The notes: a model not told the origin generated them from the sequence alone. A stretch of DNA of 59,197 bases from a virus (IMGVR_UViG_3300027985_000657:1-59197), one strand, 5' to 3'; shown: positions 4,151 to 59,126, counted from the stretch's first letter. Made by a program: numbers and translations.

Positions 4151-4178
4151 CTATAATAAAGGATGTAAAAACTACGAA
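4151..4178 (-). promoter_or_regulatory. Phage promoter-like motif copy
   Basis: TTCGTAGTTTTTACATCCTTTATTATAG. Confidence 0.7.
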
Positions 4179-4199
4179 TTGTAAAAGAGAAAGCCCATG

Positions 4200-4265
4200 T
4201 TAGGCTTTATTCTTCTTAAATAGATTTGACATAAAATTTTTAAATTTTTCCCAAAATTTTTTCAT
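4200..4265 (-). CDS. 21-aa amphipathic cationic micropeptide MKKFWEKFKNFMSNLFKKNKA
   Basis: Own promoter motif (4284-4311), AAAGGATGG RBS, terminator hairpin overlapping the stop. Confidence 0.65.
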   Translation of the reverse strand: MKKFWEKFKNFMSNLFKKNKA

Positions 4266-4283
4266 CTTATATACCATCCTTTC

Positions 4284-4311
4284 CTATAAAGAGGTATGTA
4301 AAATTTGCGCA
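4284..4311 (-). promoter_or_regulatory. Phage promoter-like motif copy
   Basis: TGCGCAAATTTTACATACCTCTTTATAG. Confidence 0.7.
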
Positions 4312-4313
4312 AA

Positions 4314-4628
4314 CTATGCATCCCAATTATCAATGATTACATTGAAACCACATTGTTGCATTAGCTCTGTAGAACTGATATATTTCAACCCATAAAATGT
4401 GTGTGTTGATAGGTAATGATCTTGGTATGGTATTTGTCGCGCATAACTTTTTCGTTTGCTATATGGTCTTGGATTTTTTGCTCGAAGCCATCCATTATAA
4501 TCTCCAACCTCAAGAATATGACTTTTTGATTCATTTGGAATGACTTTTAACTCTTCCCAATTTTTTATTAATGTTGCTGTTGGATACTTTCTTTTTAAAG
4601 CATCCATAGTATGTACATGATGTGCCAT
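4314..4628 (-). CDS. Hypothetical protein
   Basis: 104 aa, TAATG-coupled to the upstream ORF. Confidence 0.7.
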   Translation of the reverse strand: MAHHVHTMDALKRKYPTATLIKNWEELKVIPNESKSHILEVGDYNGWLRAKNPRPYSKRKSYARQIPYQDHYLSTHTFYGLKYISSTELMQQCGFNVIIDNWDA

Positions 4629-5104
4629 TATTCTTTCACTCGAATGTTTTGTTCTAGGAGTTTTTGTGTGTTTTTTACTGCTTTTTGAAGAATATCATTT
4701 GAAATTTCAATTGGATATACTTCTCCAGTGCGTGCTTTACCAGCACAAACACAATCAACAACCATTTCAAGAACATCTAGAAGATCAACATTTTCTGGAC
4801 ATTTATCATTAAGATGATGTCTTTCTGTTAAATGAATCTGCCACCAAGGTAGCTTTTTAAGATCAACATTTTCTGGATCTTGTTGCTTCTTAGAGAAATC
4901 CTCAAAGAATTGTTCAAAATGTGAAATTTTTGTATGATCGTGGTTATTACCAATTATCTTTAATTCATCTGATAAAGCAAATAGTACAGTTCGAACTGCA
5001 GTGATATGCTTGGTTGTATCAAGAAGAATTAGATCTTTTCTTAATGCTCCGTCAGCAGATCTTGTATCTGCATTTGGAGTTCTTTCTATGTATACTGTAT
5101 TCAT
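4628..5104 (-). CDS. His/Asp-rich conserved phage protein (HD-like metal-binding)
   Basis: HI...HDHTK...H..ERHH...D..EM..D pattern. Start reassigned to MNTVY (AAAGGAGAA RBS) because the longer ORF overlaps the tmRNA. Confidence 0.7.
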   Translation of the reverse strand: MNTVYIERTPNADTRSADGALRKDLILLDTTKHITAVRTVLFALSDELKIIGNNHDHTKISHFEQFFEDFSKKQQDPENVDLKKLPWWQIHLTERHHLNDKCPENVDLLDVLEMVVDCVCAGKARTGEVYPIEISNDILQKAVKNTQKLLEQNIRVKE

Positions 5105-5136
5105 AGATTCTCCTTTTCTTATTAGTAATTTAATAT

Positions 5137-5536
5137 TGGTGGAGGTGAGGGGAGTCGAACCCCTGTCCAAAATATTCAAATACACCAATTTCTACAGGGT
5201 TATTAACTTTTCGAATTTAAAACACTAAAAATATAAAGTATACGAAACTCTTAATAGTGAGTAAAAGGTAGAAGTTGCTTATCCCATCACACCTCTCATA
5301 GATGAGGGCAAGCCGTATTATTTTTGAGAACCAAGACACCTACGACTAAATATCAATGGTTCACCTCTCACTTTTCTTAGTAAGAGAAGACTGTTCTGGA
5401 TTTGAAGCCGGCGATTACGCTTTGGAACCAGCCGACGATTTTTTGGATAAAGTTTCCGTTTATTTTGTGGATTTTAGTTCTCCCGAACCCCTGCTTATGA
5501 TGTTCATCGTATCCTGTCGAATCCTAGAACACCCCC
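5137..5536 (-). ncRNA. ssrA: tmRNA (transfer-messenger RNA)
   Basis: 5' GGGGGTGTTCTAGGATTCGACAGG; 3' GACAGGGGTTCGACTCCCCTCACCTCCACCA; acceptor stem with a G3.U pair, T-arm and encoded CCA; internal tag frame 5457-5377. Confidence 0.93.
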
Positions 5537-5547
5537 ATTAAATTACT

Positions 5548-6136: not shown

Positions 6137-6880
6137 TTAACTTACATGCTCCGCAAATGCAAGTGCCATGAGTTTACAATCATCTAATGTTTTAGCAGTA
6201 AACCCAACTGGTAAACTTATATCACGTTCTGGATGTTCTTTTAATCCTTCTTCATTCCATCCAGAAGATGCGGTACAGTCTCCTATCTTAACGACATCAC
6301 CAATTTTAAATCCTTGGATTGCTCGATGAGAATATCCATACCATTTTTGACGTTTACTAGAAAAACCAATGCATGCGGTTCCTCTAGGATTATCAAATGG
6401 AAGATTCTCCAAAGTAAGCATATCAATTTTATACTTCTTAAACAATTTTAATTGATCGATAGTCCCTACATACATTTCTGGACGATCAAAAATTGTTAGA
6501 TTAGGCATTAACAATACACCCGGTTGTTTTTGTTTACTGATGTATCTGCGTGCTCTGAAGTATGCAATTGATTCAAAAATATCCCTGAAAAAACGACGGA
6601 TGTGCCATCTAATTTTTACAAAGATTGTTATTTTTTCTTTTGCTATAGGTGCTTCAATAATTGCAGCACTAGCAGTTGTTTCTGTTGTTTCATTCATTTT
6701 AATAAGTTCTCCTTTATTAATTTTTGTAATGAATTCCATATCCGTTATTGAGGTTTCTAATATAGTCATTGAACCATCTCGTTTAATATGAACAGACGTA
6801 TCACCAATAACTTTTCCTTTGTCATCTTCTAATGGTAGTCGATGTATACCAGGGGTAATATCATACGTATGTTTATTCAT
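6137..6880 (-). CDS. Hypothetical protein
   Basis: Long ORF with C-terminal IGFS...WYGYSHRA..GF.IGD motif; start reassigned to MNKHTY. Confidence 0.7.
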   Translation of the reverse strand: MNKHTYDITPGIHRLPLEDDKGKVIGDTSVHIKRDGSMTILETSITDMEFITKINKGELIKMNETTETTASAAIIEAPIAKEKITIFVKIRWHIRRFFRDIFESIAYFRARRYISKQKQPGVLLMPNLTIFDRPEMYVGTIDQLKLFKKYKIDMLTLENLPFDNPRGTACIGFSSKRQKWYGYSHRAIQGFKIGDVVKIGDCTASSGWNEEGLKEHPERDISLPVGFTAKTLDDCKLMALAFAEHVS

Positions 6881-7127
6881 TTTCAATAACCTTAATAATA
6901 TTGCCATCAATATCTATTGTTATTTTAAAGACTACTGTGCTAGGACATTCTGGGCATGGAAATGCCATTAAATACTCTAATGGATTAGGCTGTAAAACTA
7001 ATACTACCGAATCCGATGAATTCCTTGTTCTTTTAGAAGCCATTTCTTCTATTAAAACTTTTATTTCATCTGAAGTCATCTCTTCTGAATAACCGCAATA
7101 TGGACATTTAATTTCATGTTTTAACAT
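6873..7127 (-). CDS. Zn-ribbon protein
   Basis: CPYCG...CPECP; AAGGAGAA RBS. Confidence 0.7.
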   Translation of the reverse strand: MLKHEIKCPYCGYSEEMTSDEIKVLIEEMASKRTRNSSDSVVLVLQPNPLEYLMAFPCPECPSTVVFKITIDIDGNIIKVIENE

Positions 7128-9693: not shown

Positions 9694-12600
9694 TTACATA
9701 TTTAATTCTTCTACATCAAAAACTTCATTATCTGCTGATATAAATATTTCCTCATCAGATTCATGTTGTTCATGATCAACAAACCACTCAAAGTCTCCAT
9801 ACTTATTAATTGTATCAATTGCATTATCAACCATAACATTATAATATGAAGTATCGATTGAATCTCTTAAATCAAGTTCCTCAACCATTTCAGCTTCAAG
9901 CCATCTGTATCCTTTTGATCCAGTTACAGCATCATAACTAACAGTACCATCCTTTTTATTAACAGGTTTAACTAAAAGTCCTCCACCATGTCCTGGTAAA
10001 ATTGGGCAGAAGTTTCCAACACGCCCAATAAATTTCAAGTCATCAACACCGTCTGATTCATTCATGTTTAGGTAAATAGAAGATTTAACTTCTTTAACTT
10101 CACACAGATCATCAAACAATATTTTCTCATGACTAAATAATGTTTTGAAAACATATGGAACTTTAAATTGAGTTCCTGTTGCTGTCCATTTATTTGCTTT
10201 CTTTCCGCCCTTATTTCTGATTCCATGTTTATCAAGTTTACCAACATACACTGCATCATTAACAAGACATATTCTGTCAAAGTTACACTCGTGCGCAAAC
10301 TTATACCCATATTTATGAGCAAATTCATGACAGAATTCAACTATTTCATCAGTAATGTTTGGAATTTTAACGGAGTCTGTTTTTATATGCATCACTTCAA
10401 CACCCTTTTCTGCAAGGGCATCTTGTAATGTTTTCATGAACAATGCTCCACGTAAAGCAACAATATTGTTTTCATTTCTTGGGTCCTTAAATGGATTGCT
10501 AAATGTTGCTGAAGTTAAACCATATACTGAATTGATTGCGATTTTTAATGCAGTTGCAACATCATCAGACATAGTTGGATCATCTAGGAATGGTTTCAAT
10601 ACTCCATTGAATAACTCTTCAGCTAAATCAAGTCTTCCATTTTTAATATAAACTCTTGAATCAACAAGAGCCCTAAATATTGGTGTGTATTCGCCAAAAT
10701 AATTCATGGCTAGTGCTGAATTTGGATGCATACTCTCAATATCAAGCAAACCAACATCTGTATACATACCTGGTTTCGCATATACATACCCACCAAATTT
10801 CAAATCAACACCACGATACATGTTTTTCTTGTCATATTTATTGGTTTCAGGATTCCAGGTTTTTACAAATTCATAACCAGGGAATTCCTCTGCAAGATCA
10901 ACATAATTTAATTTTGGTGCTTTTTCAGTGCCAAATATCAATTTTGTAGATAATGAGTTTGTAGTGTCGTTTACGCAAACATTTAATCCTCTATACCCTT
11001 TGACCATTGCCACTAACATTTGTCTTGCTCTAAAATCTCCAGCTGTATGATTGAATAATGCTTCAGTTGCGATGACATCGTTATCACAATATTCGGCAAC
11101 TTCCAACCATTTTTCTTCAGGAACTGGTTGATCCCATGGAAGACCAAGCTCCTTGTGTTTGATTTTAAGTTTAATTTGCCACTTCTTAAGTGACATCTTT
11201 TCAACCGCATAGTCATAAATATCAGTATAACTGATGTTATATGCTTCTGCAAAGAAACCTTGTTTTTGGTTGATTATTTTACTACTCAATTCGAATAGTT
11301 TTAAATTAGAATATCCAAGAAGTGCTCCATAAATAATATGATTGTCATATCGTCTACAGTTAAACCCAACAAGTCTATATCTCATTAACATTTCAATTTC
11401 GTGTGGGGTTGGATTAATCATCCTTGTTATTGGACGTCCAACACCCTGTAATTTCCAGTTGACAACTAGCAAATTTGGAAATACTTCAACATCATAAAAT
11501 GCTATTGGTTTTTCATCGTTCGCTACATTTTCAGAAGCATCATCCGACTTAAACTTCATTTTTGGTACTAATTTTAAACAATAGTCTGATTGGTTAGTGC
11601 TGCTCGCAGCAAATGCTAATATAATACCATGTAAATCAGATACGTCATATTTAACGCCACTATTGTATGCATCTTCTAAGATTTTAAATATAAAGTCAAC
11701 CGATGGTTTAGTTCCAGCATGATACTCCTTATTTAGATTGTTTTTTATTAAAGACCTAATGGCCTTTTCATTTTTAACACTTTCGAAGTTTATCACGCGT
11801 CCAACCTCCCTCATTGGTAAACCCGAATTAATTTTATTTATGTTTTCGTTGTTACATTTTGTAAGCATTCTTCGAAGAGAACTATCCCCGGTAAATACTT
11901 TGACTTCTATATTATCTGCATATACACGACTAAGTAATGTTGGATCACCATCATAAATATAATGAAGATGAATACCTTTTCCAGACTTACTAACCTCGGC
12001 ATATGTTTTTGGCCATTTACTAGCCTCTTCCAGATTTTTTTGAAAGTCTTTTTCACCATGTTCGTCTTGAATATCAAAGTCAATGACTATATGGTTTAAT
12101 GGAACCTTAAGATAATGTAATCTCTTGGTATCAAGTTCTTTCAATGTTGTAGAGCATTCCGACCACTTACTCATTGGAATACCAGATCTTGTTCCATATT
12201 GAGCTGAACAATCTGCACAATCGACGTCAAGTTTAGAAGGATAATCACCAAATTCAATTAATTCAAATGAATCTTTTTTCTTTCTATTTTTTGGTTTAAT
12301 CACTTCCGTTGGTTGTTCAAAAATATCAGTTCGGAAATCAAAATAGTATGATCGCACGTATTCGCCATTAACCCTGTATCGTTCTTCATAATTTTTGAAA
12401 TAATTTCGCAATTCATTTTTAAAGACTCTCATTGACATTGGATATGGCACTTTTGCCGAATCACAATACATCTTATACATTTCCCAAGCAACTTTCAATG
12501 TTACACTGTTGTCTTTTTTAAATATAGGAAACGCGTCAGATACAAAGTTATAAAAGTCATTAGATTCACTCATCATCAAAATAGGTTTATAGTCATCATA

Positions 12601-13617
12601 TGCATGTTTGTCTTCCTCATATATCTGAAGACAGTGAAATGCAATAGCACCAAGTTCAAATTTTATTTGAGTCATTAAACGGTTGTATCTAGCAAGTGGT
12701 ATTTTATTACCAGATGGGTAAATATCAATCAATCTTCGCATCAAACCTGATTTGGCATTTGTGATTCTTACAGGACTATTTGTGCCCATTAGAAGAAATG
12801 ATATAAATCTCATTTCATATAAGGATTTATGCTTTTCATTCACAATCATCTTCTCGTGAGAAACCAAACTATTAATTTTAGTATTTTTTTCAATTCTTGA
12901 CAAGTCTCCATCATGGCTTATCGCCACTAATGGATTTGCTTTAAATTGTTCAAGCGCAAAAGCGTCCGATGCCGAACCAAGAGATTCAGCATCAAACATT
13001 TTAAAATATCCATTGAATAACTCTTGAATGATGTTCAGGATTGTAGATTTACCACTACCCGGCGGACCATAGAATACACCAAATTTTTGGATTGTTTTTG
13101 AATCACCACTAAGTATAGCACCAATAATCCACTCTATCTTATGACGTTCGTTTTCATTATAAAGGGTCGAAACCATCTCGTTCCAACCCTCCATAGTTCC
13201 TTCCTCGTCTAGAGAATAGGGTAATCTCTTTGTACCATAATCTTCCTTATTGGTTCCTTGATTTTGAAATATCAAGTTTTCATCAAGTTGTTTCCAATTA
13301 GATCGAAGCTGTTTTTGACAATATTTATGCCATACATCGATCATATTTGTTTCCGCATCCCACATATACATGATTCGTATATGATCCTCACCATATCTGT
13401 GTTTGTTCTTTTGCGCAAACTCGTCCAAATATCCATCTATGAGTTGTAATACATCATCCTCATTTGTGGACCATAGTCCAAGTTGTTCAATCCAGACGGC
13501 ATAAAAGTCACCGCCTCGAATCATTAGATCCTTACTCTTACTTGTAATTTTGAATTTCGGATATATTTCTACAACACCTTTACGTGTTCTTGTCGAAATC
13601 ATCAGAAAATCAAGCAT
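9694..13617 (-). CDS. Fused SF3 helicase - AEP-type primase - family B DNA polymerase
   Basis: GPPGSGKST and LMGTN (SF3); IDFD and SKSGKGIHLHY (AEP); FYDVE, GFN...YD, YCDND (3'-5' exonuclease); DIESMHP, KIAINSVYG, KTDS (PolB). Confidence 0.88.
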   Translation of the reverse strand: MLDFLMISTRTRKGVVEIYPKFKITSKSKDLMIRGGDFYAVWIEQLGLWSTNEDDVLQLIDGYLDEFAQKNKHRYGEDHIRIMYMWDAETNMIDVWHKYCQKQLRSNWKQLDENLIFQNQGTNKEDYGTKRLPYSLDEEGTMEGWNEMVSTLYNENERHKIEWIIGAILSGDSKTIQKFGVFYGPPGSGKSTILNIIQELFNGYFKMFDAESLGSASDAFALEQFKANPLVAISHDGDLSRIEKNTKINSLVSHEKMIVNEKHKSLYEMRFISFLLMGTNSPVRITNAKSGLMRRLIDIYPSGNKIPLARYNRLMTQIKFELGAIAFHCLQIYEEDKHAYDDYKPILMMSESNDFYNFVSDAFPIFKKDNSVTLKVAWEMYKMYCDSAKVPYPMSMRVFKNELRNYFKNYEERYRVNGEYVRSYYFDFRTDIFEQPTEVIKPKNRKKKDSFELIEFGDYPSKLDVDCADCSAQYGTRSGIPMSKWSECSTTLKELDTKRLHYLKVPLNHIVIDFDIQDEHGEKDFQKNLEEASKWPKTYAEVSKSGKGIHLHYIYDGDPTLLSRVYADNIEVKVFTGDSSLRRMLTKCNNENINKINSGLPMREVGRVINFESVKNEKAIRSLIKNNLNKEYHAGTKPSVDFIFKILEDAYNSGVKYDVSDLHGIILAFAASSTNQSDYCLKLVPKMKFKSDDASENVANDEKPIAFYDVEVFPNLLVVNWKLQGVGRPITRMINPTPHEIEMLMRYRLVGFNCRRYDNHIIYGALLGYSNLKLFELSSKIINQKQGFFAEAYNISYTDIYDYAVEKMSLKKWQIKLKIKHKELGLPWDQPVPEEKWLEVAEYCDNDVIATEALFNHTAGDFRARQMLVAMVKGYRGLNVCVNDTTNSLSTKLIFGTEKAPKLNYVDLAEEFPGYEFVKTWNPETNKYDKKNMYRGVDLKFGGYVYAKPGMYTDVGLLDIESMHPNSALAMNYFGEYTPIFRALVDSRVYIKNGRLDLAEELFNGVLKPFLDDPTMSDDVATALKIAINSVYGLTSATFSNPFKDPRNENNIVALRGALFMKTLQDALAEKGVEVMHIKTDSVKIPNITDEIVEFCHEFAHKYGYKFAHECNFDRICLVNDAVYVGKLDKHGIRNKGGKKANKWTATGTQFKVPYVFKTLFSHEKILFDDLCEVKEVKSSIYLNMNESDGVDDLKFIGRVGNFCPILPGHGGGLLVKPVNKKDGTVSYDAVTGSKGYRWLEAEMVEELDLRDSIDTSYYNVMVDNAIDTINKYGDFEWFVDHEQHESDEEIFISADNEVFDVEELNM

Positions 13618-14426: not shown

Positions 14427-15065
14427 TTAGTCTTCTTCGACTACTCCTATTATACCATTTATTTGATCATATGTTCTTTCTTCTAGAAGAACTTCATATA
14501 CAATGCCCTTTTTCTCATCACAAATGAACAAACAATCAGCATCATAAATTCCCATTTTATCCAGATTAGGATAACCGCCAACGATTCCAATATTATTCAA
14601 TTGATTATAATCGTCATCGGTAAGAACTTTATCAGCAGTGTAATAAAGGGTAACAGTCTCATATTCACTATCCTGAAATTCTTCAGGTGTCATAATATAT
14701 GGTTTAGTCGTGTCTACTTCCTCCTCTTTAATATGTACAAGTTTTTCTTCTCCAGGATCACCAGGAATTCTTTGATCTGATCCTGTTCTGTATTGTTCAC
14801 TGTAGTCAATCTTGCCATTGACTTTTTTAACTACAGGTTTCTTTGGTTCTTCTTTCTTTGGTTCATCAATTGGTTTATTGTCACCTTCTGGTACAACAGC
14901 CTCTTCTTTGACGCCAGAATAACGAGCAAGTAATACTTTTCGAACAGCAGCTACTTCTTCGTCCGCTAAATGCTCATAATATTTTTTGCTACGCATGTAG
15001 CCGATTTTATAACCGGCTACCGCTGCAAGAGATGCTCCAACTAAAAATATCAATACTTTTTTCAT
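14427..15065 (-). CDS. Membrane-anchored conserved phage protein
   Basis: N-terminal TM helix, PYIMTPEEF motif, acidic C-terminal domain. Confidence 0.75.
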   Translation of the reverse strand: MKKVLIFLVGASLAAVAGYKIGYMRSKKYYEHLADEEVAAVRKVLLARYSGVKEEAVVPEGDNKPIDEPKKEEPKKPVVKKVNGKIDYSEQYRTGSDQRIPGDPGEEKLVHIKEEEVDTTKPYIMTPEEFQDSEYETVTLYYTADKVLTDDDYNQLNNIGIVGGYPNLDKMGIYDADCLFICDEKKGIVYEVLLEERTYDQINGIIGVVEED

Positions 15066-16039
15066 TAGATCACCTTTCTGAATTGTGTGAACATTTTATT
15101 ACCGTTCTTACCGGTAAGAATATCACCATCCACGTTGAATTCTAAGAATAATTCTTGTGCGTTACTTCTTAATGAATCCATAGCATATTGGTTTTTATTT
15201 CCAAATCTGTCAAATAGACCCATTGAAATATAAGAATCTCTTGTGTCATCACTAGGATCATAAATCCATCCTAATACTCTAGATGCTTGAAGCTTTTCAT
15301 CACCAAGTGAAGAAATATCAATACCTAATTCCTCATATACTTCATGTAGGAACATTGCCCCAGTATATACTAATTTCATGTTTAGGTATTTTTCTTTCAT
15401 TGCTAATTGATTTAATACCATATTAGTATCTCTGATCCATCCATGGGCAGTTCGATCATACATTACAGTAAAATCACTATCTGCTTTGACGTGTGGCCCT
15501 TTTACAAGTTGTTTTGTTAGATTACCATCTTTATCAACAACTTCTTTTTCTTCTTCACGGACATCTCTGAAAATATCTTTTTCTGCTAGATCTCCAATTT
15601 TTGCAGCAACTCTCTCACGATATGAGCGATAGCCGTTTTCTAATGTCGTATAAGCAGCTGCAAGTGCCATGTTACGACCCTTCATGATTTTGTGTGAACC
15701 AAGAATTCCGGCAACAGTTAAGCCAAATCCGATTGCTGTTGGTAAATATAATCTACCTAGTTCGAGTCCTGTTTTTGCATAGACTTTAGTTAACTCTTTT
15801 TTGCCTAAACTAACAGAGTACTCTTTGTTTGATAATTTATTATCATCATGCATATCTTGTTTGATTTCTTTGATTTTTTTATTAGCATTAGCAACTACAA
15901 GCTCTGCTTTTGGTGTTGCTTTAACGGCTAATACAATACTTCCTGCTGCAGCGATAATAGCTCCAGCTACAAGTAGTTCTGGTGATTTTTGTTTACCCCA
16001 AAAACCAACCTTACTAATAAATCCTGTAAATTTATTCAT
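15065..16039 (-). CDS. Membrane-associated paralog 1 (DUF6353-like, from recall)
   Basis: SPELL...ATPKA...LY.PT...ALAAAYT..E...Y pattern shared with the 17173 and 17936 ORFs. Confidence 0.75.
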   Translation of the reverse strand: MNKFTGFISKVGFWGKQKSPELLVAGAIIAAAGSIVLAVKATPKAELVVANANKKIKEIKQDMHDDNKLSNKEYSVSLGKKELTKVYAKTGLELGRLYLPTAIGFGLTVAGILGSHKIMKGRNMALAAAYTTLENGYRSYRERVAAKIGDLAEKDIFRDVREEEKEVVDKDGNLTKQLVKGPHVKADSDFTVMYDRTAHGWIRDTNMVLNQLAMKEKYLNMKLVYTGAMFLHEVYEELGIDISSLGDEKLQASRVLGWIYDPSDDTRDSYISMGLFDRFGNKNQYAMDSLRSNAQELFLEFNVDGDILTGKNGNKMFTQFRKVI

Positions 16040-17018: not shown

Positions 17019-17046
17019 TCATTATACCAGATGTATTTTATGCGAA
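17019..17046 (-). promoter_or_regulatory. Phage promoter-like motif copy
   Basis: TTCGCATAAAATACATCTGGTATAATGA. Confidence 0.75.
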
Positions 17047-19194: not shown

Positions 19195-19222
19195 TCATTA
19201 TAGTGAATGTTAATTTTGCGAA
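19195..19222 (-). promoter_or_regulatory. Phage promoter-like motif copy
   Basis: TTCGCAAAATTAACATTCACTATAATGA. Confidence 0.75.
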
Positions 19223-21013: not shown

Positions 21014-21041
21014 CTATAATAAGAAATGTAAAATATGCTAT
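21014..21041 (-). promoter_or_regulatory. Phage promoter-like motif copy (variant)
   Basis: ATAGCATATTTTACATTTCTTATTATAG, overlapping the upstream stop codon. Confidence 0.6.
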
Positions 21042-22924: not shown

Positions 22925-22952
22925 CTATAATAAGAGATGAAATTTATGCGTT
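22925..22952 (-). promoter_or_regulatory. Phage promoter-like motif copy (variant)
   Basis: AACGCATAAATTTCATCTCTTATTATAG. Confidence 0.6.
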
Positions 22953-25322: not shown

Positions 25323-25350
25323 CTATAAAGTGATATGTAAATTATGCGAA
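25323..25350 (-). promoter_or_regulatory. Phage promoter-like motif copy
   Basis: TTCGCATAATTTACATATCACTTTATAG (identical to 27308-27335). Confidence 0.8.
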
Positions 25351-27205: not shown

Positions 27206-27233
27206 CTATAAAGTGATATGTATTTTTTGCGTA
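27206..27233 (-). promoter_or_regulatory. Phage promoter-like motif copy
   Basis: TACGCAAAAAATACATATCACTTTATAG. Confidence 0.75.
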
Positions 27234-27305: not shown

Positions 27306-27307
27306 TC

Positions 27308-27335
27308 CTATAAAGTGATATGTAAATTATGCGAA
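27308..27335 (-). promoter_or_regulatory. Phage promoter-like motif copy
   Basis: TTCGCATAATTTACATATCACTTTATAG. Confidence 0.8.
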
Positions 27336-48240: not shown

Positions 48241-48726
48241 CTAGTTACCTCCCTTTCCAGAATCTTGCATGTCAACCTTGTTAGTTTTATATGCTACTCT
48301 ACCATTTTCCCATACACCATTTTTAAGCTGATTAATGTCATATCCTTGATCAGCTAATGCCATATGGACACCGATTTGGCCCCTCTTTGCAACCCATTCT
48401 ACTATTTTACCTGACGGTGACCTAATATCCTTGGTTTTTGTTCGAAGTACTTCAGCCAAATGTTTATTGTACGTATTAATAAGAGTTCGTTTACCCATTT
48501 GTTGACCTGATTTTTGTAATTCTTTAATGTATTCCTTCATTTCAGGCTTGGATTCTTTTAGTGCTTTTTCATACACCTTATCGGATTTTCGTTTAACCCA
48601 TTTTTCATCCAATTTTTGATATCGTCTAACTCCAGCAGGCGTTAGAGATCCATCATCATTCTGGTAACGTCTTATTCCCCATCGTTGACCTTTAATACCA
48701 TGATGGACTAGATATGTTTTTATCAT
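48241..48726 (-). CDS. HHGIKGQRWG-motif small basic head-region protein 3
   Basis: YLVHHGIKGQRWGIRRYQNDDGSLTPAG.RRY. Confidence 0.8.
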   Translation of the reverse strand: MIKTYLVHHGIKGQRWGIRRYQNDDGSLTPAGVRRYQKLDEKWVKRKSDKVYEKALKESKPEMKEYIKELQKSGQQMGKRTLINTYNKHLAEVLRTKTKDIRSPSGKIVEWVAKRGQIGVHMALADQGYDINQLKNGVWENGRVAYKTNKVDMQDSGKGGN

Positions 48727-50484: not shown

Positions 50485-50955
50485 CTACTTACCGGATCTA
50501 TTTTGTTTTGCGATTACTTGTTTTCTTGTTTGTGGCTTACCAGTAAATGTTTCTGGAGTAGGTCCCATACCAGTTGAATTAAATGTTCTATTACTATTTG
50601 CTATAACGAAACTTTTTGCTCCTGAAGCAACTATAACAGAGCCAATAAGTGTTGATAAAATTGCATCATTTAACAATTTTTTACCACTTTTTGTTGATAG
50701 ATTTGTTTTATTAATTTTGGCTTTTACAATAGCAGTAACACCTTTTGCCACAACGGCTGTTCCGGCAATAGTTTTTAATGTACCTCTATTAATTCTACTT
50801 CTTCTATAACTTTCTTTCATATTTACAGTTCCGTCTTCATTTACGTCATAGCGTTTTTTACCAAGAGGAGTAAGACTTCCATCTTCGTTTTGGAAACGTC
50901 TAATTCCCCAACGTTGGCCTTTAATACCATGATGGACCAAATATGTTTTATGCAT
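50485..50955 (-). CDS. HHGIKGQRWG-motif small basic head-region protein 2
   Basis: YLVHHGIKGQRWGIRRFQNEDGSLTPLGKKRY; two hydrophobic segments. Confidence 0.8.
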   Translation of the reverse strand: MHKTYLVHHGIKGQRWGIRRFQNEDGSLTPLGKKRYDVNEDGTVNMKESYRRSRINRGTLKTIAGTAVVAKGVTAIVKAKINKTNLSTKSGKKLLNDAILSTLIGSVIVASGAKSFVIANSNRTFNSTGMGPTPETFTGKPQTRKQVIAKQNRSGK

Positions 50956-50956: not shown

Positions 50957-51481
50957 TTATTTCCCTCCTTTATTGCCAAGTTTTATTTTGTTAATTTCAC
51001 CTACGGTGATAGCAATACTTGCACCAATTGCAACAGCGGCGCCAACTGTTTGTAAAATTTCACGGGTCCAATCAGCTCCGGATCGAATTCTTTTTGTATC
51101 ACCAGTTAATTCGCCGTAACTACGTTCCATGCTTAAGCGGTTGATTCTTTGTCTAATTTCAGCATCAGATAATTTGCTATAATCGGCGTTGTTAACAATT
51201 TTTGATTTGTTTTTTCCGACATTACCAATCGCAGTATCTAATGTATTTATAGATTTTGATGTTCCTTCAAGAATAGCTTTTGCAGCATCCGCATCTGCTT
51301 TACGATAATCGGCTTCAAGTTGTTTTTTACCTGTCTGATTGACTATTGAATTCCCATGTTCATTTGAATTCCCATAGCGTTTTTTTCCAAGATCTGTTAG
51401 TGTGCCATCAGGGTTTTGGTAACGTCTGACACCCCATCGTTGACCTTTAATCCCGCTATGAAATAAGTATAATTTAATCAT
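50957..51481 (-). CDS. HSGIKGQRWG-motif small head-region protein 1
   Basis: YLFHSGIKGQRWGVRRYQNPDGTLT..GKKRY; LSD.E....I.RL..E..Y repeat unit; C-terminal hydrophobic helix. Confidence 0.8.
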   Translation of the reverse strand: MIKLYLFHSGIKGQRWGVRRYQNPDGTLTDLGKKRYGNSNEHGNSIVNQTGKKQLEADYRKADADAAKAILEGTSKSINTLDTAIGNVGKNKSKIVNNADYSKLSDAEIRQRINRLSMERSYGELTGDTKRIRSGADWTREILQTVGAAVAIGASIAITVGEINKIKLGNKGGK

Positions 51482-53133: not shown

Positions 53134-53260
53134 TTAAGTATCTAAGCAGATATATAGTATATCCGAACACTTGTATTGTGGTTTTTAGAAGGAAAGGAGA
53201 ACTTAGAAAGAAGAATATCCCTTGAATGTCAGATTCCTATATACCTGACTAGATACTTAA
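53134..53260 (-). ncRNA. Long hairpin whose loop is antisense to the phage's extended RBS
   Basis: Perfect 11-bp TTAAGTATCTA/TAGATACTTAA stem plus further helices; minus-strand loop reads CTTTCTAAGTTCTCCTTTCCTTCTAAAA. Confidence 0.55.
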
Positions 53261-53283
53261 GGTTAAAAACATGTCTCCAAAAA

Positions 53284-53360
53284 CCCCCCCCGGGGAAATT
53301 TTGAAGGGCGGGGCGATGCCGGAGGGGGGTGTAATTTCCGAAGACCCCCCGTCGGTGCCC
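53284..53360. other. GC-rich island, probable cos/packaging site
   Basis: Extreme GC island with C/G runs in an AT-rich genome, upstream of the TerS-like and HNH genes; minus strand reads CGCCCCGCCCT at 53315-53305. Confidence 0.6.
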
Positions 53361-53477
53361 ACAAAGTGGTGAAAGTACTTGAATAATTGTTATTAATGGC
53401 AATTTTTAAGTTCAGTCAAGAACACCTAACATTATTCTATTCAATTTTGATGTAAAAACATACACCTTATTTTACAA

Positions 53478-53762
53478 TTAATTTTTATTTTTAGTTTCTT
53501 TAATAACTTTTTTAAATTCTATGATTTCACCTTGTTTATTTATGGCGCCCGTCTTAATTAGTTGGTCTATGCCATGGTTAACAGACTCATAGATTTCTTC
53601 ATCAGTCATTGAATCACTAAGAAATGTTATACTTGCTAATCTACCACATGTATTATAGCCAGCATTGGTATCAAATAATAGCCATTGTTCCCAGTGTGTG
53701 AAAGGATTATATGGATTGTCTGCTGTTGTTACACGTAGTTCTTTATTGTTATATGCGGACAT
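53478..53762 (-). CDS. Small conserved protein following the RNA polymerase-like gene
   Basis: TT.DNPYNPF...W..FD...GY.T...LA; strong RBS, starts 2 nt after the upstream stop. Confidence 0.75.
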   Translation of the reverse strand: MSAYNNKELRVTTADNPYNPFTHWEQWLLFDTNAGYNTCGRLASITFLSDSMTDEEIYESVNHGIDQLIKTGAINKQGEIIEFKKVIKETKNKN

Positions 53763-53764: not shown

Positions 53765-56740
53765 TTACTCTCCTTTCAATGTGTTAGTAACTGTTGTTAC
53801 AGACACACCAATAGCTCTAGCTATCTCTGATGTAGTATAGCCGGATCTAGCCATGTTTTCTATTCTTCTTATTTTGGCAGGACTTAAAACAACACTAGTT
53901 CTAGGCATAGCAAACTTTCTTAGAATCTCTATGTTAGCATTAGCCATTATTTGTTCTAACTTATGGGTACTTATAGCACCAGCTTGTATTGCATCCCATT
54001 CTCTTTGTGTTATTTCTATTTCATGTCTAGCGGCACCTACCTTAGCCCTAGCCTTACTTAATTCTTGTTGTCTAAGCTTTCTTTCCTCTTCTGCAGTCAT
54101 TCTAGGATTGTCTTGTTTTTTAATTCTTATGTTAGATGCAGCAATTGTTTGGGCCTGTCTTTCTCTAGGAGCATTGAGTAGAGCTTGATTAATTTTGTAA
54201 TCTAAAGAAATGACCTCCTCATTGTATGCATTTCTAGCCGATGCAGAATAAGGGGTATTAATAATTGTAAGCGTTTCTTTTCTTGCTTCGTTGGCTAATG
54301 TTTTTAACGCATTAGCATATGTGGCATAGGCTTCCTCCTGTGGTGTACCAGATGATAGTGTTCTAGCATCATTTGTTTCAGCCATTTTAGTGGAGTATGT
54401 TGTTGCTTTAGTTGTTTTAATATTTTCATTAGTTACTTTTACATAATCACCGGTCTCATCTTTATAGTATAGATTACCATCTTTTACAATAACAGAAACT
54501 TTTTTATTGTCACCAGAAGATGTCTTATATGTAGTGGTCATGTATTCTCTGTTTGTATACGTATACAGTTTTTCACCAGTTTCTGGATCAAAGTATCTAG
54601 TTTTCTTATCTTTTTCACCATAATATTTACCAGTTTGTTCATCATAGTAAATCTTATTTTCTGGATCAATCAATGTAATTTGATTTCCTGTATCTTTTGC
54701 AAAGTAAGCTCCAAGTTTTCGCTCACCAACAACTTGTGTAGATTTTGATTTTGAAATTAATGTAGCTGCACCCATGTGCGATCTTCCAGTTTCTGGATCA
54801 ATCTGTGTTTGGTACTTTTTATGAAGTGCTTTTACACCATTGTCAACTTCAGACTGTTTATAATCCAATTTATGTTTGTTTGCATCGATGATAACCATTG
54901 AATGTTTAACAGCTCTTGCTAATTCTTCATTTGTTGCACCTTTCAATGTCATGTCTGTAATAAGGTTAGAAATAGTACCCATTTCATTTTGGGTTCTTGT
55001 TTCTGGGAGAATTGTAAATTCTTTTCCTCCTCTATAATACCTTTCTTCGCCATTAATAGTTTTTATTTCGTCTGGACCATACGAAAACTTTGTATCAAAG
55101 CCTTCCAAAGCCTTTAAAGGTGGTGATGAAGAAATCTTAATCTTGTCGGTAATAGGTATAACCATTACTGTGTCACCATCAAAATCTGCACCGGATAGTC
55201 TTGCTGCAACTTTTGCATTTATTCCTATTGCATCTGTTGGATTTTTTGTCATGATAGAAATCGCTTCTTTATTCCTATTATTTACATTTAAAACTGGAAT
55301 TTCAAAAGTTCCACCATGTGGATATCTAACCAATGCTATTTGAGATCCATCATCCATATGTGGTGCAAATGCTTCATTATCTTTTAATGATGGAACAGCT
55401 AAAATTACTTTGTATTTTGCTCCCGGTAATCCTGCAGCTTTTAAATTTACAGCTGAAGCATCACAATCATCAGCAAATGACAATAATAATGATTTTTTAA
55501 CTGTTGGATTAGTTAGAGAATTTATTTCGTCAAATTCATCAACTTTTTCTTGCATAGAAATTTCCAATTGTTTATTAATTAATTTCTGAGGCTGTTTAGA
55601 TAAAAATTGTGCGGATATTTCTTTAGACCAATCTCCCCAATCACCTTCATCTGAACGTTTATTTATTACAGATAGATGCTCATTTCCATCAGAATCATAC
55701 CAAACTGATTGTCCGCCTGTTTCTTTTATTGTTGAACCAAATGGATTATCTGGATCGTTTTTGATTGGTTTCATAGCATCTAATTTTGATTCGGTTTTGT
55801 TTTTATTTGTATTGAAAACAACATCTATTCCATCTGGCATATTATCAGAATATACTGCCATTCCTTTTAAATAGTGTGTTCCATCAACTAGAATACGAAC
55901 TTGAGAATAATTAGATGTTCCTAGTGAAATATCATCAACACCTCTTCTAAGTTCAATAATTCCATCTTTTTCACCGCCACCTTCATTGCCATATCTAACT
56001 TCAATTCTATCAGAACTCAAACTTTCTGGATATTGAAATGACGGTTTAAATGTTTTTCCATCATCATAAGATGTTAAGTCTTCTACAGAATGAATTTGAT
56101 CATAATTATAAATTGCTTTATGTGGTGTTCCAGGCGAACAAAGAACTTTTAATGTAGTTAACATTCCTTTATTAGTGGCTTGAGGAACTCTGTTACCATG
56201 AACAACATAACCTTCCATTTTTAAGATTTCAATTGCTTGATCCATCTTTTCTTTGGAAACTTTTAATTGTCTAGGTACGCCAGCACCAATATCAATCATA
56301 CCTTTTTCATCAACTAATTGTCTAAGATTGTCTGCCAAATCAGTTGCTAGATTCATTCTTGCTTTTGCATCTTTATTTAATAATGATCTTACACTTGATT
56401 CACCTTTCAAACCAAGCATTTCTGCAATTTTTACTCTACTGTATCCTTCTTCACTTAACGTGTTAGCTTTAGAATATAAGTCGTTTTTTCTTTCTCTTTT
56501 TGCTAGTGATACTAATGCTCTTAAACGAGTACTTGAAATATCACCCATGGCTTTTGCTATTTCTGCTTCTGTTAGACCTTGCTTTTTTAGTTCGTCAACT
56601 CTACTTAAAAAGTCTCCACTATGCTGATATGGTGATTCGCCACTTCCCCATGGATATCTACCAGAATGTCTAGGAGTACCATAGTGAAGTAGATATTCAT
56701 CATCAGTCATTGAATTGTCTAGTAATTCTTTATCACTCAT
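53765..56740 (-). CDS. Putative single-chain two-barrel (DFDGD) RNA polymerase with fused HTH domains
   Basis: LSGADFDGD (55172-55192 for GADFDGD), LVRYPH, SQVR...YLKGM, GTISN, HSMVIIDANK; HTH-like segments at both termini. Confidence 0.8.
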   Translation of the reverse strand: MSDKELLDNSMTDDEYLLHYGTPRHSGRYPWGSGESPYQHSGDFLSRVDELKKQGLTEAEIAKAMGDISSTRLRALVSLAKRERKNDLYSKANTLSEEGYSRVKIAEMLGLKGESSVRSLLNKDAKARMNLATDLADNLRQLVDEKGMIDIGAGVPRQLKVSKEKMDQAIEILKMEGYVVHGNRVPQATNKGMLTTLKVLCSPGTPHKAIYNYDQIHSVEDLTSYDDGKTFKPSFQYPESLSSDRIEVRYGNEGGGEKDGIIELRRGVDDISLGTSNYSQVRILVDGTHYLKGMAVYSDNMPDGIDVVFNTNKNKTESKLDAMKPIKNDPDNPFGSTIKETGGQSVWYDSDGNEHLSVINKRSDEGDWGDWSKEISAQFLSKQPQKLINKQLEISMQEKVDEFDEINSLTNPTVKKSLLLSFADDCDASAVNLKAAGLPGAKYKVILAVPSLKDNEAFAPHMDDGSQIALVRYPHGGTFEIPVLNVNNRNKEAISIMTKNPTDAIGINAKVAARLSGADFDGDTVMVIPITDKIKISSSPPLKALEGFDTKFSYGPDEIKTINGEERYYRGGKEFTILPETRTQNEMGTISNLITDMTLKGATNEELARAVKHSMVIIDANKHKLDYKQSEVDNGVKALHKKYQTQIDPETGRSHMGAATLISKSKSTQVVGERKLGAYFAKDTGNQITLIDPENKIYYDEQTGKYYGEKDKKTRYFDPETGEKLYTYTNREYMTTTYKTSSGDNKKVSVIVKDGNLYYKDETGDYVKVTNENIKTTKATTYSTKMAETNDARTLSSGTPQEEAYATYANALKTLANEARKETLTIINTPYSASARNAYNEEVISLDYKINQALLNAPRERQAQTIAASNIRIKKQDNPRMTAEEERKLRQQELSKARAKVGAARHEIEITQREWDAIQAGAISTHKLEQIMANANIEILRKFAMPRTSVVLSPAKIRRIENMARSGYTTSEIARAIGVSVTTVTNTLKGE

Positions 56741-57378
56741 CTCTTATACTCCCTTTCAAAATATTTTTTAATAGTTTTATCTTTTGATGTAATCAAATGC
56801 ATTATTCCTTGAATTTCTGTAGGTTCTGCAACAAGAGTTTGAATTTCTCCTTCTTGATAAATACGTAATTCCGTTGTAAAATCAAACGGGTCTTTTTTAT
56901 ACTCTAAACAAAATAACGCAGCATATATCAATAGTTGTTCCATTTTTGTTGGTGTTATACCACTTTTTAAATCATGAATTCTTAATATTTTATTAAATTC
57001 ATCAAAAACTATTGTGTCTGCCGTTCCGAAAGCATTCATTGAATAATATAAAATTACTTCTGGATACATTCTAAAACCAATAGCATCATTTACAAAAGGT
57101 AAAAGATTCAATAAAATTTGCTCAGAATCATATGCACCTTTTGGAATACCTAGTTTGGCTAAGAAAATATCAATTACTTTTTTGTCTGATCTAGCTAATT
57201 TAATTCTATGTGAAATTAAATCTCTAGCTAATTCATGTAATGCTGTTCCTATGGTTTGGGCGAATTGACCATAATATCTTTTTTCAAGTGTCTCATCATC
57301 CCAATTTAACCAGTGATACTTACTTGCTCCTAAAAAGGCATGTAGCCCTTCAAGTTTTGAGTGATCATTAAATATCAT
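56737..57378 (-). CDS. PD-(D/E)XK Cas4/RecB-like exonuclease (DUF2800-like)
   Basis: HAFL.AS...W, GTALH, PE..L, FGTAD, IHDLKSG, QLLIYA. Confidence 0.8.
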   Translation of the reverse strand: MIFNDHSKLEGLHAFLGASKYHWLNWDDETLEKRYYGQFAQTIGTALHELARDLISHRIKLARSDKKVIDIFLAKLGIPKGAYDSEQILLNLLPFVNDAIGFRMYPEVILYYSMNAFGTADTIVFDEFNKILRIHDLKSGITPTKMEQLLIYAALFCLEYKKDPFDFTTELRIYQEGEIQTLVAEPTEIQGIMHLITSKDKTIKKYFEREYKR

Positions 57379-57701
57379 TTTCCTAAGTTCTCCTTTTTCT
57401 TGAAATTATTAACATGATTATGCAATCTGTCAAAAACCTCATTTTCATTTTCAGGATTTATAAAACTTGAGAAACTCATATCATTATGCTTATTTACATA
57501 ATATTCTTGATTGGGTTGTTTGTTAGCTTTTTTATTTTTTTTAACTTCAAGTGTTCCCCATGTTAATGGACATAATACAACTAAATCTGGACTACCTTGA
57601 ATTTCAGTAGGATCTAGTTTATGAACTTCACATTGAGGAAACTCTTTTTTCAATCGATCTTTTACAATTGATTGAAACCCATTTTTACCAGTCTCTCTCA
57701 T
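57375..57701 (-). CDS. VRR-NUC family nuclease / resolvase
   Basis: E..FQ...QGSPDL...LEVK...QPNQ; start reassigned to MRETGK. Confidence 0.8.
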   Translation of the reverse strand: MRETGKNGFQSIVKDRLKKEFPQCEVHKLDPTEIQGSPDLVVLCPLTWGTLEVKKNKKANKQPNQEYYVNKHNDMSFSSFINPENENEVFDRLHNHVNNFKKKENLGK

Positions 57702-57782
57702 AAATATAAGTCCTTCCTTCTTTATTAGGTAAAATGCAAAACAGAATGTAATATGCTTTTTTCGCAATTTACCCTCTTCTCT

Positions 57783-57810
57783 CCATAAAAGTCTATGTAT
57801 TATCTGCGAA
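57783..57810 (-). promoter_or_regulatory. Phage promoter-like motif copy heading the nuclease-RNAP operon
   Basis: TTCGCAGATAATACATAGACTTTTATGG. Confidence 0.75.
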
Positions 57811-57812
57811 TA

Positions 57813-59024
57813 TTAATAATCATTTTCTAAGAACTTATATTGTTTAATATATTCTGGAATTAAACTAACGATTGTTCCTTCTTCATCAACCTTAAGTTTA
57901 ATAAACCATGCTCCAGATTCATTTGCAATTCTCTTTCTCTTCATCCAAGAAGATTGTTGTGTCATAGATGGCGCTTCAAAATAATGAATATTTCTATAAA
58001 GAAAATACATTGCTTTGTGATGATGTCCTACAAATAAAATGTTAGGCTTATCACCACCAGAAATAGAGTCCATATATTTTTGACCAGAATATGATACGGC
58101 ATATGCAGAACCATCAAGAGGATGGAATAAATCCATTCTACAATTTGGAGTTAACATAATTTTTGCATGGCCAATTCCTAAATAATTTATGTCTTTTCTT
58201 TCTTTTGCAATTGCAGCTCCAATATTAAAGCCACCATTCTTAATATGTGTTTCATCATGATTGCCAATAATTAGATGTGTAGTAATTCCAGGATAACGTG
58301 GCCAATTCGCAACTACATAATCTTTTTGTTCGTCTGCACCAATTGCAATTAGCTCATAAATTTGTTCTGGTCTTGATTTATAATACCCATCAACTATATC
58401 ACCAACATGATAAACATTTGTGATTCCTCTTCTGTTTGCTTCTGCATAAATAAAATCTACAAAAGATTTTTGTTGAATCTTTGTACACCAATGTGAATCA
58501 CTTATTACTAAAAATTCAATTTCTGTTACTTTACCGATAGAATGAACATATGTTTGTGGAACTACAGCTAGTGTTTTTTCCAAACTATATTGTTCTGTGC
58601 TCTTATTGTAAGATATGATATAGTTGTCTACTTTCAATGCATGAATTAATCCCATTGCAGTTATTTCATCAACTTTCAAATATTTTACAATTTCATCTAA
58701 CGTCTTTGGTTTAGCTAAATATTTCCTTAACTTAATTTTTTGATCAGATAATGTGATCTGTACTTCTTCTTGAACCTTTTTATTATTAAGTACATCGTTA
58801 ACTCTACCAAGATTTGTAGTTTGTGCTGCTGAACCTGTTCTTAATAATCTTGCCTTACCTGTTTCATATTGATTTTTCCACTGACGCTTTGTTAATGTAA
58901 CACCAAAATGTTCATTTAGAGTTTTTGAGATTTCATCCCAGTTTCTAAACGGTTGACCATCTGGTAATGGTGCGTCAATAATATCAAATACTTTCTGTAA
59001 ATCATCAGCTGTTTTACTATACAT
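57813..59024 (-). CDS. HTH-fused calcineurin-like metallophosphoesterase
   Basis: ISDSH, HVGDIVDG, IGNHD, FHP, GHHH; N-terminal HTH-like segments; start MYSKTA (AGGAGG RBS). Confidence 0.85.
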   Translation of the reverse strand: MYSKTADDLQKVFDIIDAPLPDGQPFRNWDEISKTLNEHFGVTLTKRQWKNQYETGKARLLRTGSAAQTTNLGRVNDVLNNKKVQEEVQITLSDQKIKLRKYLAKPKTLDEIVKYLKVDEITAMGLIHALKVDNYIISYNKSTEQYSLEKTLAVVPQTYVHSIGKVTEIEFLVISDSHWCTKIQQKSFVDFIYAEANRRGITNVYHVGDIVDGYYKSRPEQIYELIAIGADEQKDYVVANWPRYPGITTHLIIGNHDETHIKNGGFNIGAAIAKERKDINYLGIGHAKIMLTPNCRMDLFHPLDGSAYAVSYSGQKYMDSISGGDKPNILFVGHHHKAMYFLYRNIHYFEAPSMTQQSSWMKRKRIANESGAWFIKLKVDEEGTIVSLIPEYIKQYKFLENDY

Positions 59025-59098
59025 GTAAACCCTCCTGTGCTCTTTGTTATTGACCTTAGTCAAAATCTAAAGTAGAATGTAAATACTATGCATTCTCT

Positions 59099-59126
59099 CC
59101 ATAAAAGTCAATGTTTAATCTGCGAA
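59099..59126 (-). promoter_or_regulatory. Phage promoter-like motif copy
   Basis: TTCGCAGATTAAACATTGACTTTTATGG. Confidence 0.75.

Follow-up and report, generated by a model that had tools for sequence, protein, structure and literature searches.

The virus record IMGVR_UViG_3300027985_000657 (an entire IMG/VR record of 59,197 bp, called the window below) carries, on its minus strand, eleven copies of a 28-nt three-box motif. Judging from sequence, we read these sites with moderate confidence as lineage-specific promoters recognized by a 991-aa RNA polymerase predicted to be encoded by the phage itself, rather than by the sigma-A holoenzyme of its host. The promoter-like character of the sites is supported by their strand specificity and by their location directly upstream of a Shine-Dalgarno (SD) sequence and an open reading frame (ORF). 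The window is 98% complete according to CheckV and is classed as linear; its GC content is 33%, and its long ORFs lie essentially all on the minus strand.

Eleven copies of the motif on one strand

A sequence-only reading of the window had proposed a consensus of three boxes (TTCGCA, WACAT and YWTWATRR, separated by 5 and 4 nt). This consensus is matched exactly at six sites, starting at 17019, 19195, 25323, 27308, 57783 and 59099, with 0.00 such matches expected by chance (100 shuffles). When up to two mismatches are tolerated, the sites at 4151, 4284, 21014 and 27206 are added, giving 10 sites against 0.15 expected, all of them on the minus strand. The eleventh copy, at 22925 (AACGCATAAATTTCATCTCTTATTATAG), was missed by this search because it differs from the consensus at three positions. 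A matrix built mostly from relatives of the phage retrieves eleven minus-strand matches, 22925 included, at 23.4-38.6 bits, the next best scoring 5.5, and finds no match on the plus strand of the window (maximum 9.5 bits); 200 shuffles of the window, scored with the same matrix, together gave 9 matches exceeding 16 bits, the highest at 19.4. A matrix made from the eleven sites themselves, which is a circular test, scores them at 28.7-42.5 bits, the next best at -0.4 and the best plus-strand match at 4.9. No copy was found by either matrix within the structural region (27.4-53.4 kb).

Listed in the order of transcription, from high to low coordinates, the first two copies (59099..59126 and 57783..57810, minus strand like all the others) belong to a common subclass, TTTTATGGAGAGAA. 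The former lies upstream of a metallophosphatase gene and overlaps the sole sigma-70-like match present at any copy, and the latter heads a four-gene operon (endonuclease-exonuclease-polymerase-p94) whose successive junctions are a 4-nt overlap, a second 4-nt overlap and a 2-nt gap. The polymerase's own operon is thus headed by a motif copy, as had been claimed. No ORF lies between the copy at 27308..27335 and the next one, at 27206..27233, which stands 24 nt (from motif position 27) ahead of an 85-aa ORF (26926-27183). Further down, the copy at 25323..25350, which is identical to the one at 27308 over all 28 nt, precedes a 72-aa ORF (25081-25299); that at 22925..22952 is directly followed by GGAGG; those at 21014..21041 and 19195..19222 precede ORFs of 181 aa (20439-20984) and 66 aa (18965-19165), respectively; and that at 17019..17046 heads a block extending down to the primase-polymerase gene (9694-13617). 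The copy at 4151..4178 has AGGAGGA from motif position 27 and then a 63-aa ORF (3945-4136).

Globally, an SD sequence and a start codon are located downstream of 10 of the 11 copies, the exception being 27308, and the distance from motif position 27 to the start codon is 16-46 nt for eight copies and 76 nt for the one at 59099. The number, coordinates and strand of the copies, with about zero expected by chance, their absence from the structural region, their placement just upstream of a ribosome-binding site and ORF everywhere except at 27308, the identity of the 25323 and 27308 copies and the distinctness of the 57783/59099 subclass all hold as first described. Two of the units have features of their own. 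The copy at 4284..4311 precedes a short ORF of 21 codons (~4200-4265, minus strand; MKKFWEKFKNF...) which has its own SD sequence and a terminator-like hairpin (4190-4208). The ORF-less unit behind the 27308 copy (27234-27307, minus strand) could form an RNA hairpin, with a stability no better than that of shuffled sequences (z -1.25).

Anatomy of the motif and comparison with sigma-70 promoters

The anatomy of the motif was established on 170 unique sites pooled from the window and its relatives, and the matrix was refined over four rounds on its own matches, so that the conservation percentages which follow are partly inflated, a caution that counts against our reading. The first box is dominated by C3 (96%), G4 (95%) and C5 (94%), with A or G at position 6; the central box by A13 (93%), C14 (100%) and A15 (98%); and the third by T21 (91%), T23 (97%), A25 (87%) and T26 (99%). 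Position 27 is G in 79% and A in 21% of the sites, and purines occur almost exclusively through position 31. The tripartite layout originally proposed is retained, with an invariant core limited to CGC, ACA and T-x-AT; the TTCGCA and ACAT blocks are not invariant over their full length. The box centres fall at about positions 4, 14 and 24.5, i.e. ~10 bp apart, and the boxes would therefore lie on one face of the helix.

In sigma-70 promoters, the near-invariant positions of the -10 element are its second (A-11) and sixth (T-7). Here the would-be -11 A falls at position 22, where 59% of the sites have A and 36% have T (5 and 6 copies, respectively, in the window), and the T22 form is the version kept upstream of the polymerase module in relatives. 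The TG of an extended -10 element is not apparent either (T18 25%, G19 15%), and within the window only the copy at 17019 has TG in place. The spacer between TTCGCA and the hexamer at positions 21-26 is 14 nt, outside the 16-18 nt of sigma-70 promoters; TATAAT, present at 17019 and 19195, begins 14 nt after TTCGCA, as the sequence-only reading had pointed out. Sigma-70 scans yielded no more matches than shuffles did (79 versus 79.3, 117 versus 117.1 and 72 versus 95.2), and called only one of the eleven copies, 59099, by way of another pair of hexamers that overlaps it. In the copies at 4151 and 22925, the SD sequence begins at motif positions 27-29, so that a start ~7 nt past the '-10' would remove it. 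The motif does not fit the sigma-70 architecture, and with the single-strand orientation and the downstream SD sequences and ORFs this bears out its description as a promoter-like element of non-sigma-70 type.

Conservation in relatives and co-occurrence with the polymerase

Relatives of the 991-aa protein were found in at least 250 GenBank phage records, all below 60% identity (95 from Arthrobacter, 55 from Gordonia, 54 from Streptomyces and 13 from Lactococcus phages, among others), as well as at 51 IMG/VR loci. With a matrix trained on the window, the motif is detected at most of these IMG/VR loci, on the strand of the polymerase only, one copy being located ~1 kb upstream of the polymerase gene. 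It occurs in the same register in Arthrobacter phage Mudcat (GC 45%), Streptomyces phage Kardashian (GC 60%; GTCGCATATTTTACAAGCCCTATGATGAGACCCCTA), Qui (34 sites) and Gordonia phage Vardy (9 sites), and Lactococcus phage 1706 has at least 10 copies of a variant with G at position 25 (TCCACATGTTTTACATACACTATAGTAGAAAG). In each of these cultured relatives the copies start directly after the last tail or lysis gene. In the pooled search (57 sequences, 899,177 nt per strand, four matrix rounds), 211 sites lie on the gene strand and 0 on the opposite strand, where rounds 1 and 2 had each given a single match. An SD-preceded start codon follows within 400 nt for 209 of the 211 sites, the median distance from position 27 being 32 nt. 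Conservation of the CGC and ACA boxes is 94-100% across Mudcat, Qui, Kardashian, Vardy and 1706, phages whose hosts belong to two phyla and whose genomes, with the window, range from 33 to 60% GC; their persistence across two host phyla and a near-doubling of GC content argues that the reader of these boxes is very likely phage-encoded.

The association was also examined in the reverse direction, by an exact pattern scan of IMG/VR which returned at least 113 stretches; the counts below refer to 80 loci among the matches listed. The polymerase is encoded in 54 of the 80 records. All 31 records that are at least 90% complete match the polymerase, 30 of them with a full-length gene. In the exception (G003; 92% complete, with 9 motif sites), the match is confined to a 154-aa protein bearing the N-terminal peptide of the polymerase. 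This protein adjoins a terminase-like ORF that is truncated by the edge of the locus, close to the contig end, and the polymerase module is therefore probably located off the contig. The 26 records with no polymerase match are 4-85% complete, and 25 of them carry matrix sites (two or more in 23); the remaining one, L074, has no matrix site, and its pattern match probably arose by chance. Sites on both strands were seen at none of the 80 loci. The motif gave 0 matches in three phage sequences that lack this polymerase family (Lactococcus sk1, Streptomyces phiC31 and 50 kb of SPbeta). The co-occurrence of motif and polymerase gene, put forward earlier as a check, is strongly positive.

Beyond the motif itself, the leader that follows it, GAGACCCCTA(C/T)GAAAGGA, is near-identical in Streptomyces phage Kardashian and Gordonia phage Vardy (L055, L175), where it occurs in numerous copies; the conserved unit therefore reaches the ribosome-binding site.

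The 991-aa polymerase

The 991-aa protein contains the sequence ADFDGD at residues 518-523, which has the form of the DxDGD metal-binding loop and is invariant in 24 of 24 aligned relatives. An AlphaFold2 (AF2) model of the protein (pLDDT 78.4), searched against the PDB with Foldseek, matched QDE-1 (E 4e-7, probability 1.00), RDR2, P74-26 gp62 (E 9e-6) and P23-45 gp96 (E 1.8e-3), the TM-scores of these two-barrel matches being low (0.23-0.29). On this model the protein has a two-barrel, QDE-1-like fold, and an RNA polymerase function is predicted. It also contains three helix-turn-helix (HTH) units, two N-terminal (~residues 44-128) and one C-terminal (947-991). The latter matches Pfam HTH_23 at 30.5 bits, above the cut-off, and Sigma70_r4_2 at 21.5 bits, below the cut-off of 25.7; in a fold search residues 947-991 retrieved the HTHs of GcrA, Tc3, resolvase and Hin (Z 7.7-5.7) and a SigF chain (Z 5.8), all below the meaningful level. 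When residues 796-991 were folded and searched against the PDB for a sigma-like C-terminal domain, only generic three-helix HTHs (Z <8) were retrieved.

Sequence similarity to SPbeta YonO is not significant (BLASTP best E 4.2), and the link between the two proteins exists at the level of motif and fold only. The family has nevertheless been noticed before. One report presents it as a putative polymerase bearing HTH ends, and as a signature gene for a supercluster of actinophages and Firmicute phages (10.1101/842583); the term 'promoter' is absent from the accessible portion of that report. In addition, the phage 1706 protein was counted among the YonO-like proteins in the accessible portion of PMC2919709. 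The names given in the accessible literature are putative polymerase or 'HTH DNA-binding protein', with no promoter assigned.

Candidate readers of the motif

The phage polymerase is favoured as the reader because it is the only gene product of the conserved core with recognizable DNA-binding domains, possesses an intact ADFDGD loop and a two-barrel fold, and diverges together with the motif. Indeed, the most divergent polymerases (1706 at 37% and L042/L048 at 39% identity) carry the most divergent motif versions, CACA...TATAGTAG in 1706 and CGTA...CCAC...TATATGG in L042/L048. No sigma factor, activator or other DNA-binding protein was detected among 39 non-structural ORFs scanned with PHROGs and 14 scanned with Pfam; most small ORFs belong to no family, so these scans leave room for a separate specificity factor.

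According to the mechanism we propose, the HTH units of the polymerase would contact CGC (3-5), ACA (13-15) and T-W-A-T (23-26), and would thus be built-in counterparts of the sigma factor of bacterial polymerase. RNA synthesis would start in the purine run at positions 27-31, probably at G/A27 (27 or 28), yielding leaders of ~16-35 nt that carry the SD sequence. The copies past the tail genes would drive small-gene cassettes and the replication genes, and the polymerase operon and perhaps, across a cos-like site in circular or concatemeric DNA, the structural genes would depend on the TTTTATGGAGAGAA subclass. The early or middle timing and the positive feedback on the polymerase operon that the sequence-only reading had added are conjectural. 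The first polymerase molecules would be supplied by a host-read promoter or by enzyme carried in the virion.

Several observations weigh against this reading. All motif carriers form one lineage, and co-occurrence therefore cannot single out the polymerase: the window and all four GenBank genomes compared share at least seven non-structural genes (polymerase, endonuclease, exonuclease, 94-aa protein, phrog_4079, primase-polymerase and helicase), two of which, p94 and phrog_4079, are without assigned function. Co-variation of polymerase and motif may reflect simple common descent instead, and the fold matches of the HTH units are generic (Z <8). The hexamer at positions 21-26 is TATAAT-like and, with the purines that follow, resembles a sigma-A -10 element plus discriminator, and the upstream box is placed like the MotA boxes of T4, which sit ~30 bp upstream of the start. 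A polymerase that reads the promoter of its own operon needs a starting supply. The structural (late) genes have no motif copy at all, whereas SPbeta YonO, the best-studied single-chain relative, transcribes late genes from one promoter according to the accessible text (PMC5467207). In crAss-like phage phi14:2, where a two-barrel polymerase is present, a conserved tripartite motif is reported in the accessible text to be read by the host sigma-70 polymerase (10.1101/2020.03.07.982082). Finally, a literature search found no start-site, RNA or binding data for this phage or its relatives, and among the sequencing runs that hold the sequence none is listed as RNA, the only ones being DNA runs, possibly from the source sample.

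Of the alternatives, the one that survives best, though we regard it as unlikely, is that the sites are middle-type promoters at which the host sigma-A RNA polymerase is redirected by a phage DNA-binding factor, as in the sigma appropriation of T4 by MotA and AsiA. Sigma region 2 would then sit on the TATAAT-like hexamer, the phage factor on CGC and ACA in place of the -35 contact, and the phage polymerase would serve another class of genes, e.g. the structural ones. Such a scheme would account for the hexamer being TATAAT or TATTAT, with purines after it, at 5 of the 11 window sites and in most actinophage copies, and for TTCGCA lying at about -32 to -27 from the notional start; it agrees with the accessible accounts of phi14:2 and YonO cited above, requires no starting supply of phage polymerase, and could find its factor in p94 or phrog_4079, both conserved. 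It is difficult to reconcile with T at -11 in 36% of the 170 sites, in 6 of the 11 window sites and in the copy kept upstream of the polymerase module, which no shift of register rescues, or with the pattern of T23, A25 and T26 conservation, which is unlike that of -10 elements. Moreover, a sigma-type start at 4151 and 22925 would cost the SD sequence, no activator- or anti-sigma-like gene was recognized in the PHROGs and Pfam scans of non-structural ORFs, and early promoters for such a factor are not evident, sigma-70-like matches being at chance level.

It is improbable that the sites are not promoters at all, i.e. that they are repeated binding sites (operator, roadblock, antitermination or replication sites) for the HTHs of the 991-aa protein or for another phage protein, or an RNA leader element. 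Three boxes ~10 bp apart would suit any HTH protein, and the downstream leader GAGACCCCTACGAAAGGA is also kept between a Gordonia phage and a Streptomyces phage. Against this stand the strict single-strand orientation (0 of 211 opposite), the fixed short distance to the SD sequence and start codon, the position of sites right after terminator-like hairpins in one-gene cassettes, and the fact that the sigma-70 scans reveal otherwise no visible promoter class for these genes; furthermore, the motif contains no inverted repeat, and the fold of the ORF-less 27308 unit is no more stable than those of shuffled sequences. The least probable reading, that these are ordinary strong early promoters served by host RNA polymerase alone, with the extra boxes as lineage baggage or UP-like enhancers, agrees with the Vardy announcement, whose accessible text took the TATAAT of a 50-bp motif as a sigma-70 -10 (PMC9671010), and with the location of sites before small genes directly past the tail genes, a typical early region, but it offers no -35 at 16-18 nt and no TG extension, leaves unexplained why CGC and ACA are better conserved than the '-10' across two host phyla, does not account for the lack of matches in sk1 and phiC31, polymerase-free phages of the same host genera, and founders on the T22 subclass, which cannot be a sigma-A -10.

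Starting supply of the polymerase

If the phage polymerase reads the promoter of its own operon, the first molecules might come from host transcription. Two sites could serve. The sequence TTGACA-17-AATAAT (11/12) lies within the endonuclease ORF at 57405-57433 (minus strand), just upstream of the exonuclease and polymerase genes, and could be a host-read promoter supplying the first polymerase. TTGACT-17-TAGTAT (9/12) at 59083..59111 (minus strand), which overlaps the 59099 copy and belongs to a class of matches no commoner than in shuffles, is a possible host-read entry promoter.

Alternatively, and only tentatively, the 991-aa enzyme would be self-contained and sigma-independent, and would enter the cell together with the DNA after having been packed in the capsid. 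It would then recognize the three boxes, on one face of the DNA, with its three HTH units and start at G27, and the sites would be host-independent early promoters, conserved from phages of Actinobacteria to those of Firmicutes. We consider this doubtful. The N-terminal 41 residues of the polymerase are disordered in the model, yet G21, S26-Y29 and G32-G34 are invariant, and the peptide LxHYGxPRxSGRYxWGSG (residues 14-38) resembles the sequence YL(V/F)H(H/S)GIKGQRWG with which three small proteins begin, their genes (50957-51481, 50485-50955 and 48241-48726, minus strand) lying next to those of the terminase and the portal. These three score 19-20 bits on Pfam DUF7211, below its cut-off of 27, and the polymerase N-terminus does not match this family. 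Some members of the DUF7211 clusters of the ESM Atlas have this domain fused to toxin-like enzyme domains, of ADP-ribosyltransferase-like and amidase type. The 154-aa protein next to the terminase in G003 carries the polymerase-type version of the peptide. The shared peptide may be a signal for loading cargo into the capsid, which we offer as a lead; virion proteomics for relatives was not found in the literature.

Comparison with known systems

The 50-bp intergenic motif of Gordonia phage Vardy (cluster DJ), the only earlier report of the motif, is the same element as that of the window (PMC9671010). The accessible text of that announcement gives five copies in one genome and does not report conservation in other hosts, and the term 'RNA polymerase' is absent from its account of the motif (PMC9671010). 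With our matrix, Vardy has 9 sites, which are confined to the gene strand; 8 fall within the published gene 37-55 region (e.g. CTCGCATATATTACACGTCCTATAATGAGACCCCTA).

The closest worked-out system, in which motif, start sites and chromatin immunoprecipitation (ChIP) are combined, is that of Thermus phage P23-45, whose single-chain two-barrel polymerases gp96 (virion) and gp64 (non-virion) have phage-specific motifs upstream of their start sites (10.1101/2022.12.01.518664, accessible text). The likeness extends to the argument, since a motif was there assigned to its enzyme partly through its absence in enzyme-free phages, and to the proteins, P74-26 gp62 and P23-45 gp96 being among the fold matches of the window polymerase. 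The P23-45 start sites and occupancy were, however, measured by ONT-cappable-seq and ChIP-seq; the P23-45 motifs, one AT-rich and one GC-rich, are unrelated to that of the window, and no HTH ends are reported in the accessible part of the study (10.1101/2022.12.01.518664).

SPbeta YonO is likewise a single-chain polymerase with a DFDGD-type loop from a phage of a Gram-positive host; it differs in driving one late operon, and its promoter sequence is undefined in the accessible text (PMC5467207). A piece of SPbeta containing yonO and the yonN-yonK gap gave no motif match (best 10.3 bits overall and -9.6 in the gap), and the mapped YonO start site is therefore of no help for the motif. The late promoter of the phiKZ non-virion polymerase, (-3)TATG(+1), overlaps the start and is sigma-70-independent, recalling the T-W-A-T-G at positions 23-27 of the window motif, but phiKZ has a multisubunit enzyme and a consensus of 4-5 bp only, with no upstream boxes in the account accessible to us (PMC7618050). 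By analogy only, this likeness supports a start at G27.

Promoters of T7 type share with the motif a contiguous element of ~23-30 bp, present once per transcription unit, strand-specific and ending in TATA-purines, and some copies in Qui and 1706 read CACTATAG, which is T7-like. T7-type polymerases have an unrelated fold, and none was seen among the four window ORFs of at least 900 aa: two of these encode the primase-polymerase (DUF5906) and the two-barrel enzyme, and the other two, of 1137 and 1878 aa, lie in the tail region, the longer one matching tape-measure regions of relatives. The middle promoters of T4 combine an upstream box nearer than -35 with a TAnnnT-like hexamer and in this resemble the window motif, which differs in its lack of a conserved -11 A and in its additional central ACA box; no MotA- or AsiA-like gene was recognized in the PHROGs and Pfam scans of non-structural ORFs.

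Genome map and neighbouring features

From the high coordinates and in the direction of transcription, the window encodes a calcineurin-like metallophosphatase (57813..59063), the first gene downstream of the 59099 copy; an endonuclease (57375..57767; phrog_93), found beside the polymerase in relatives too; an exonuclease (56737..57378; phrog_3953); the putative 991-aa single-chain two-barrel RNA polymerase with its ADFDGD loop (53765..56740); and the 94-aa protein p94 (53478..53762; phrog_4303), all on the minus strand. The p94 gene has no assigned function and always lies 3' of the polymerase gene, and its product is a possible polymerase cofactor. Then come a GC-rich block (~53,280-53,385), the structural genes (terminase, portal, capsid-protease, tail) down to ~27.4 kb and, below, numerous small ORFs together with the replication genes (primase-polymerase, helicase and annealing protein). 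This map is shared by the cultured relatives Mudcat, Kardashian, Qui, Vardy and 1706, in which the physical ends of the genome are located immediately past the small gene 3' of the polymerase gene; the window is therefore a rotated form of the shared map.

Between the polymerase module and the first structural gene, neither a motif copy nor any other conserved promoter was found that could act as late promoter (window and 8 relatives; best score -2.6). This gap holds a conserved GC-rich, cos-like block and a CT-rich stretch. The block (53280..53385), present in 8 of 8 relatives examined and with no motif copy inside, reads GGGGGGTCT...CACCCCCC...CATCGCC...TCCGGGGGG-TTTT in this genome of 33% GC, and is probably a cos site or genome end. 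The CT-rich stretch (~53185-53215, minus strand) lies in the leader of the structural operon and contains TCTCCTTTC, the complement of a Shine-Dalgarno sequence; a similar CTCCTTTC occurs in at least five relatives.

Three further features were noticed. ARAGORN calls a tmRNA gene at 5137-5536 (minus strand), in an inter-ORF gap of the replication region, with the tag peptide AGFKSRTVFSY. The C-terminal half of a 257-aa protein (6137-6910, minus strand) matches the Pfam family Tad6 (E 4e-34), an inhibitor of type I Thoeris. Upstream of the primase-polymerase gene, three paralogous DUF6353 / phrog_2152 proteins are encoded (17173-17973, 17936-18889 and 15065-16039, minus strand); they have tblastn matches in the compared actinophages and none in 1706.

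Implications

Phage polymerases with promoters of their own are already known; the HTH-fused, single-chain two-barrel family considered here is widespread and uncharacterized. In the literature searched, which covered few subscription journals, we found no paper that links the motif to the polymerase, assigns this family a promoter or reports conservation of the motif across phyla. Should the host polymerase prove to be the reader, the finding would be reduced to an unusual lineage-specific class of promoters. How a promoter is recognized without sigma was left open, in its accessible text, by the YonO study of 2017 (PMC5467207). An element of ~30 bp, present in hundreds of copies in phages of two host phyla, makes sigma-free promoter finding by a minimal polymerase testable. 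With it, transcription units could also be better annotated, both in several actinophage clusters and in the Lactococcus 1706 group, and it might provide a small orthogonal polymerase-promoter pair for Gram-positive hosts.

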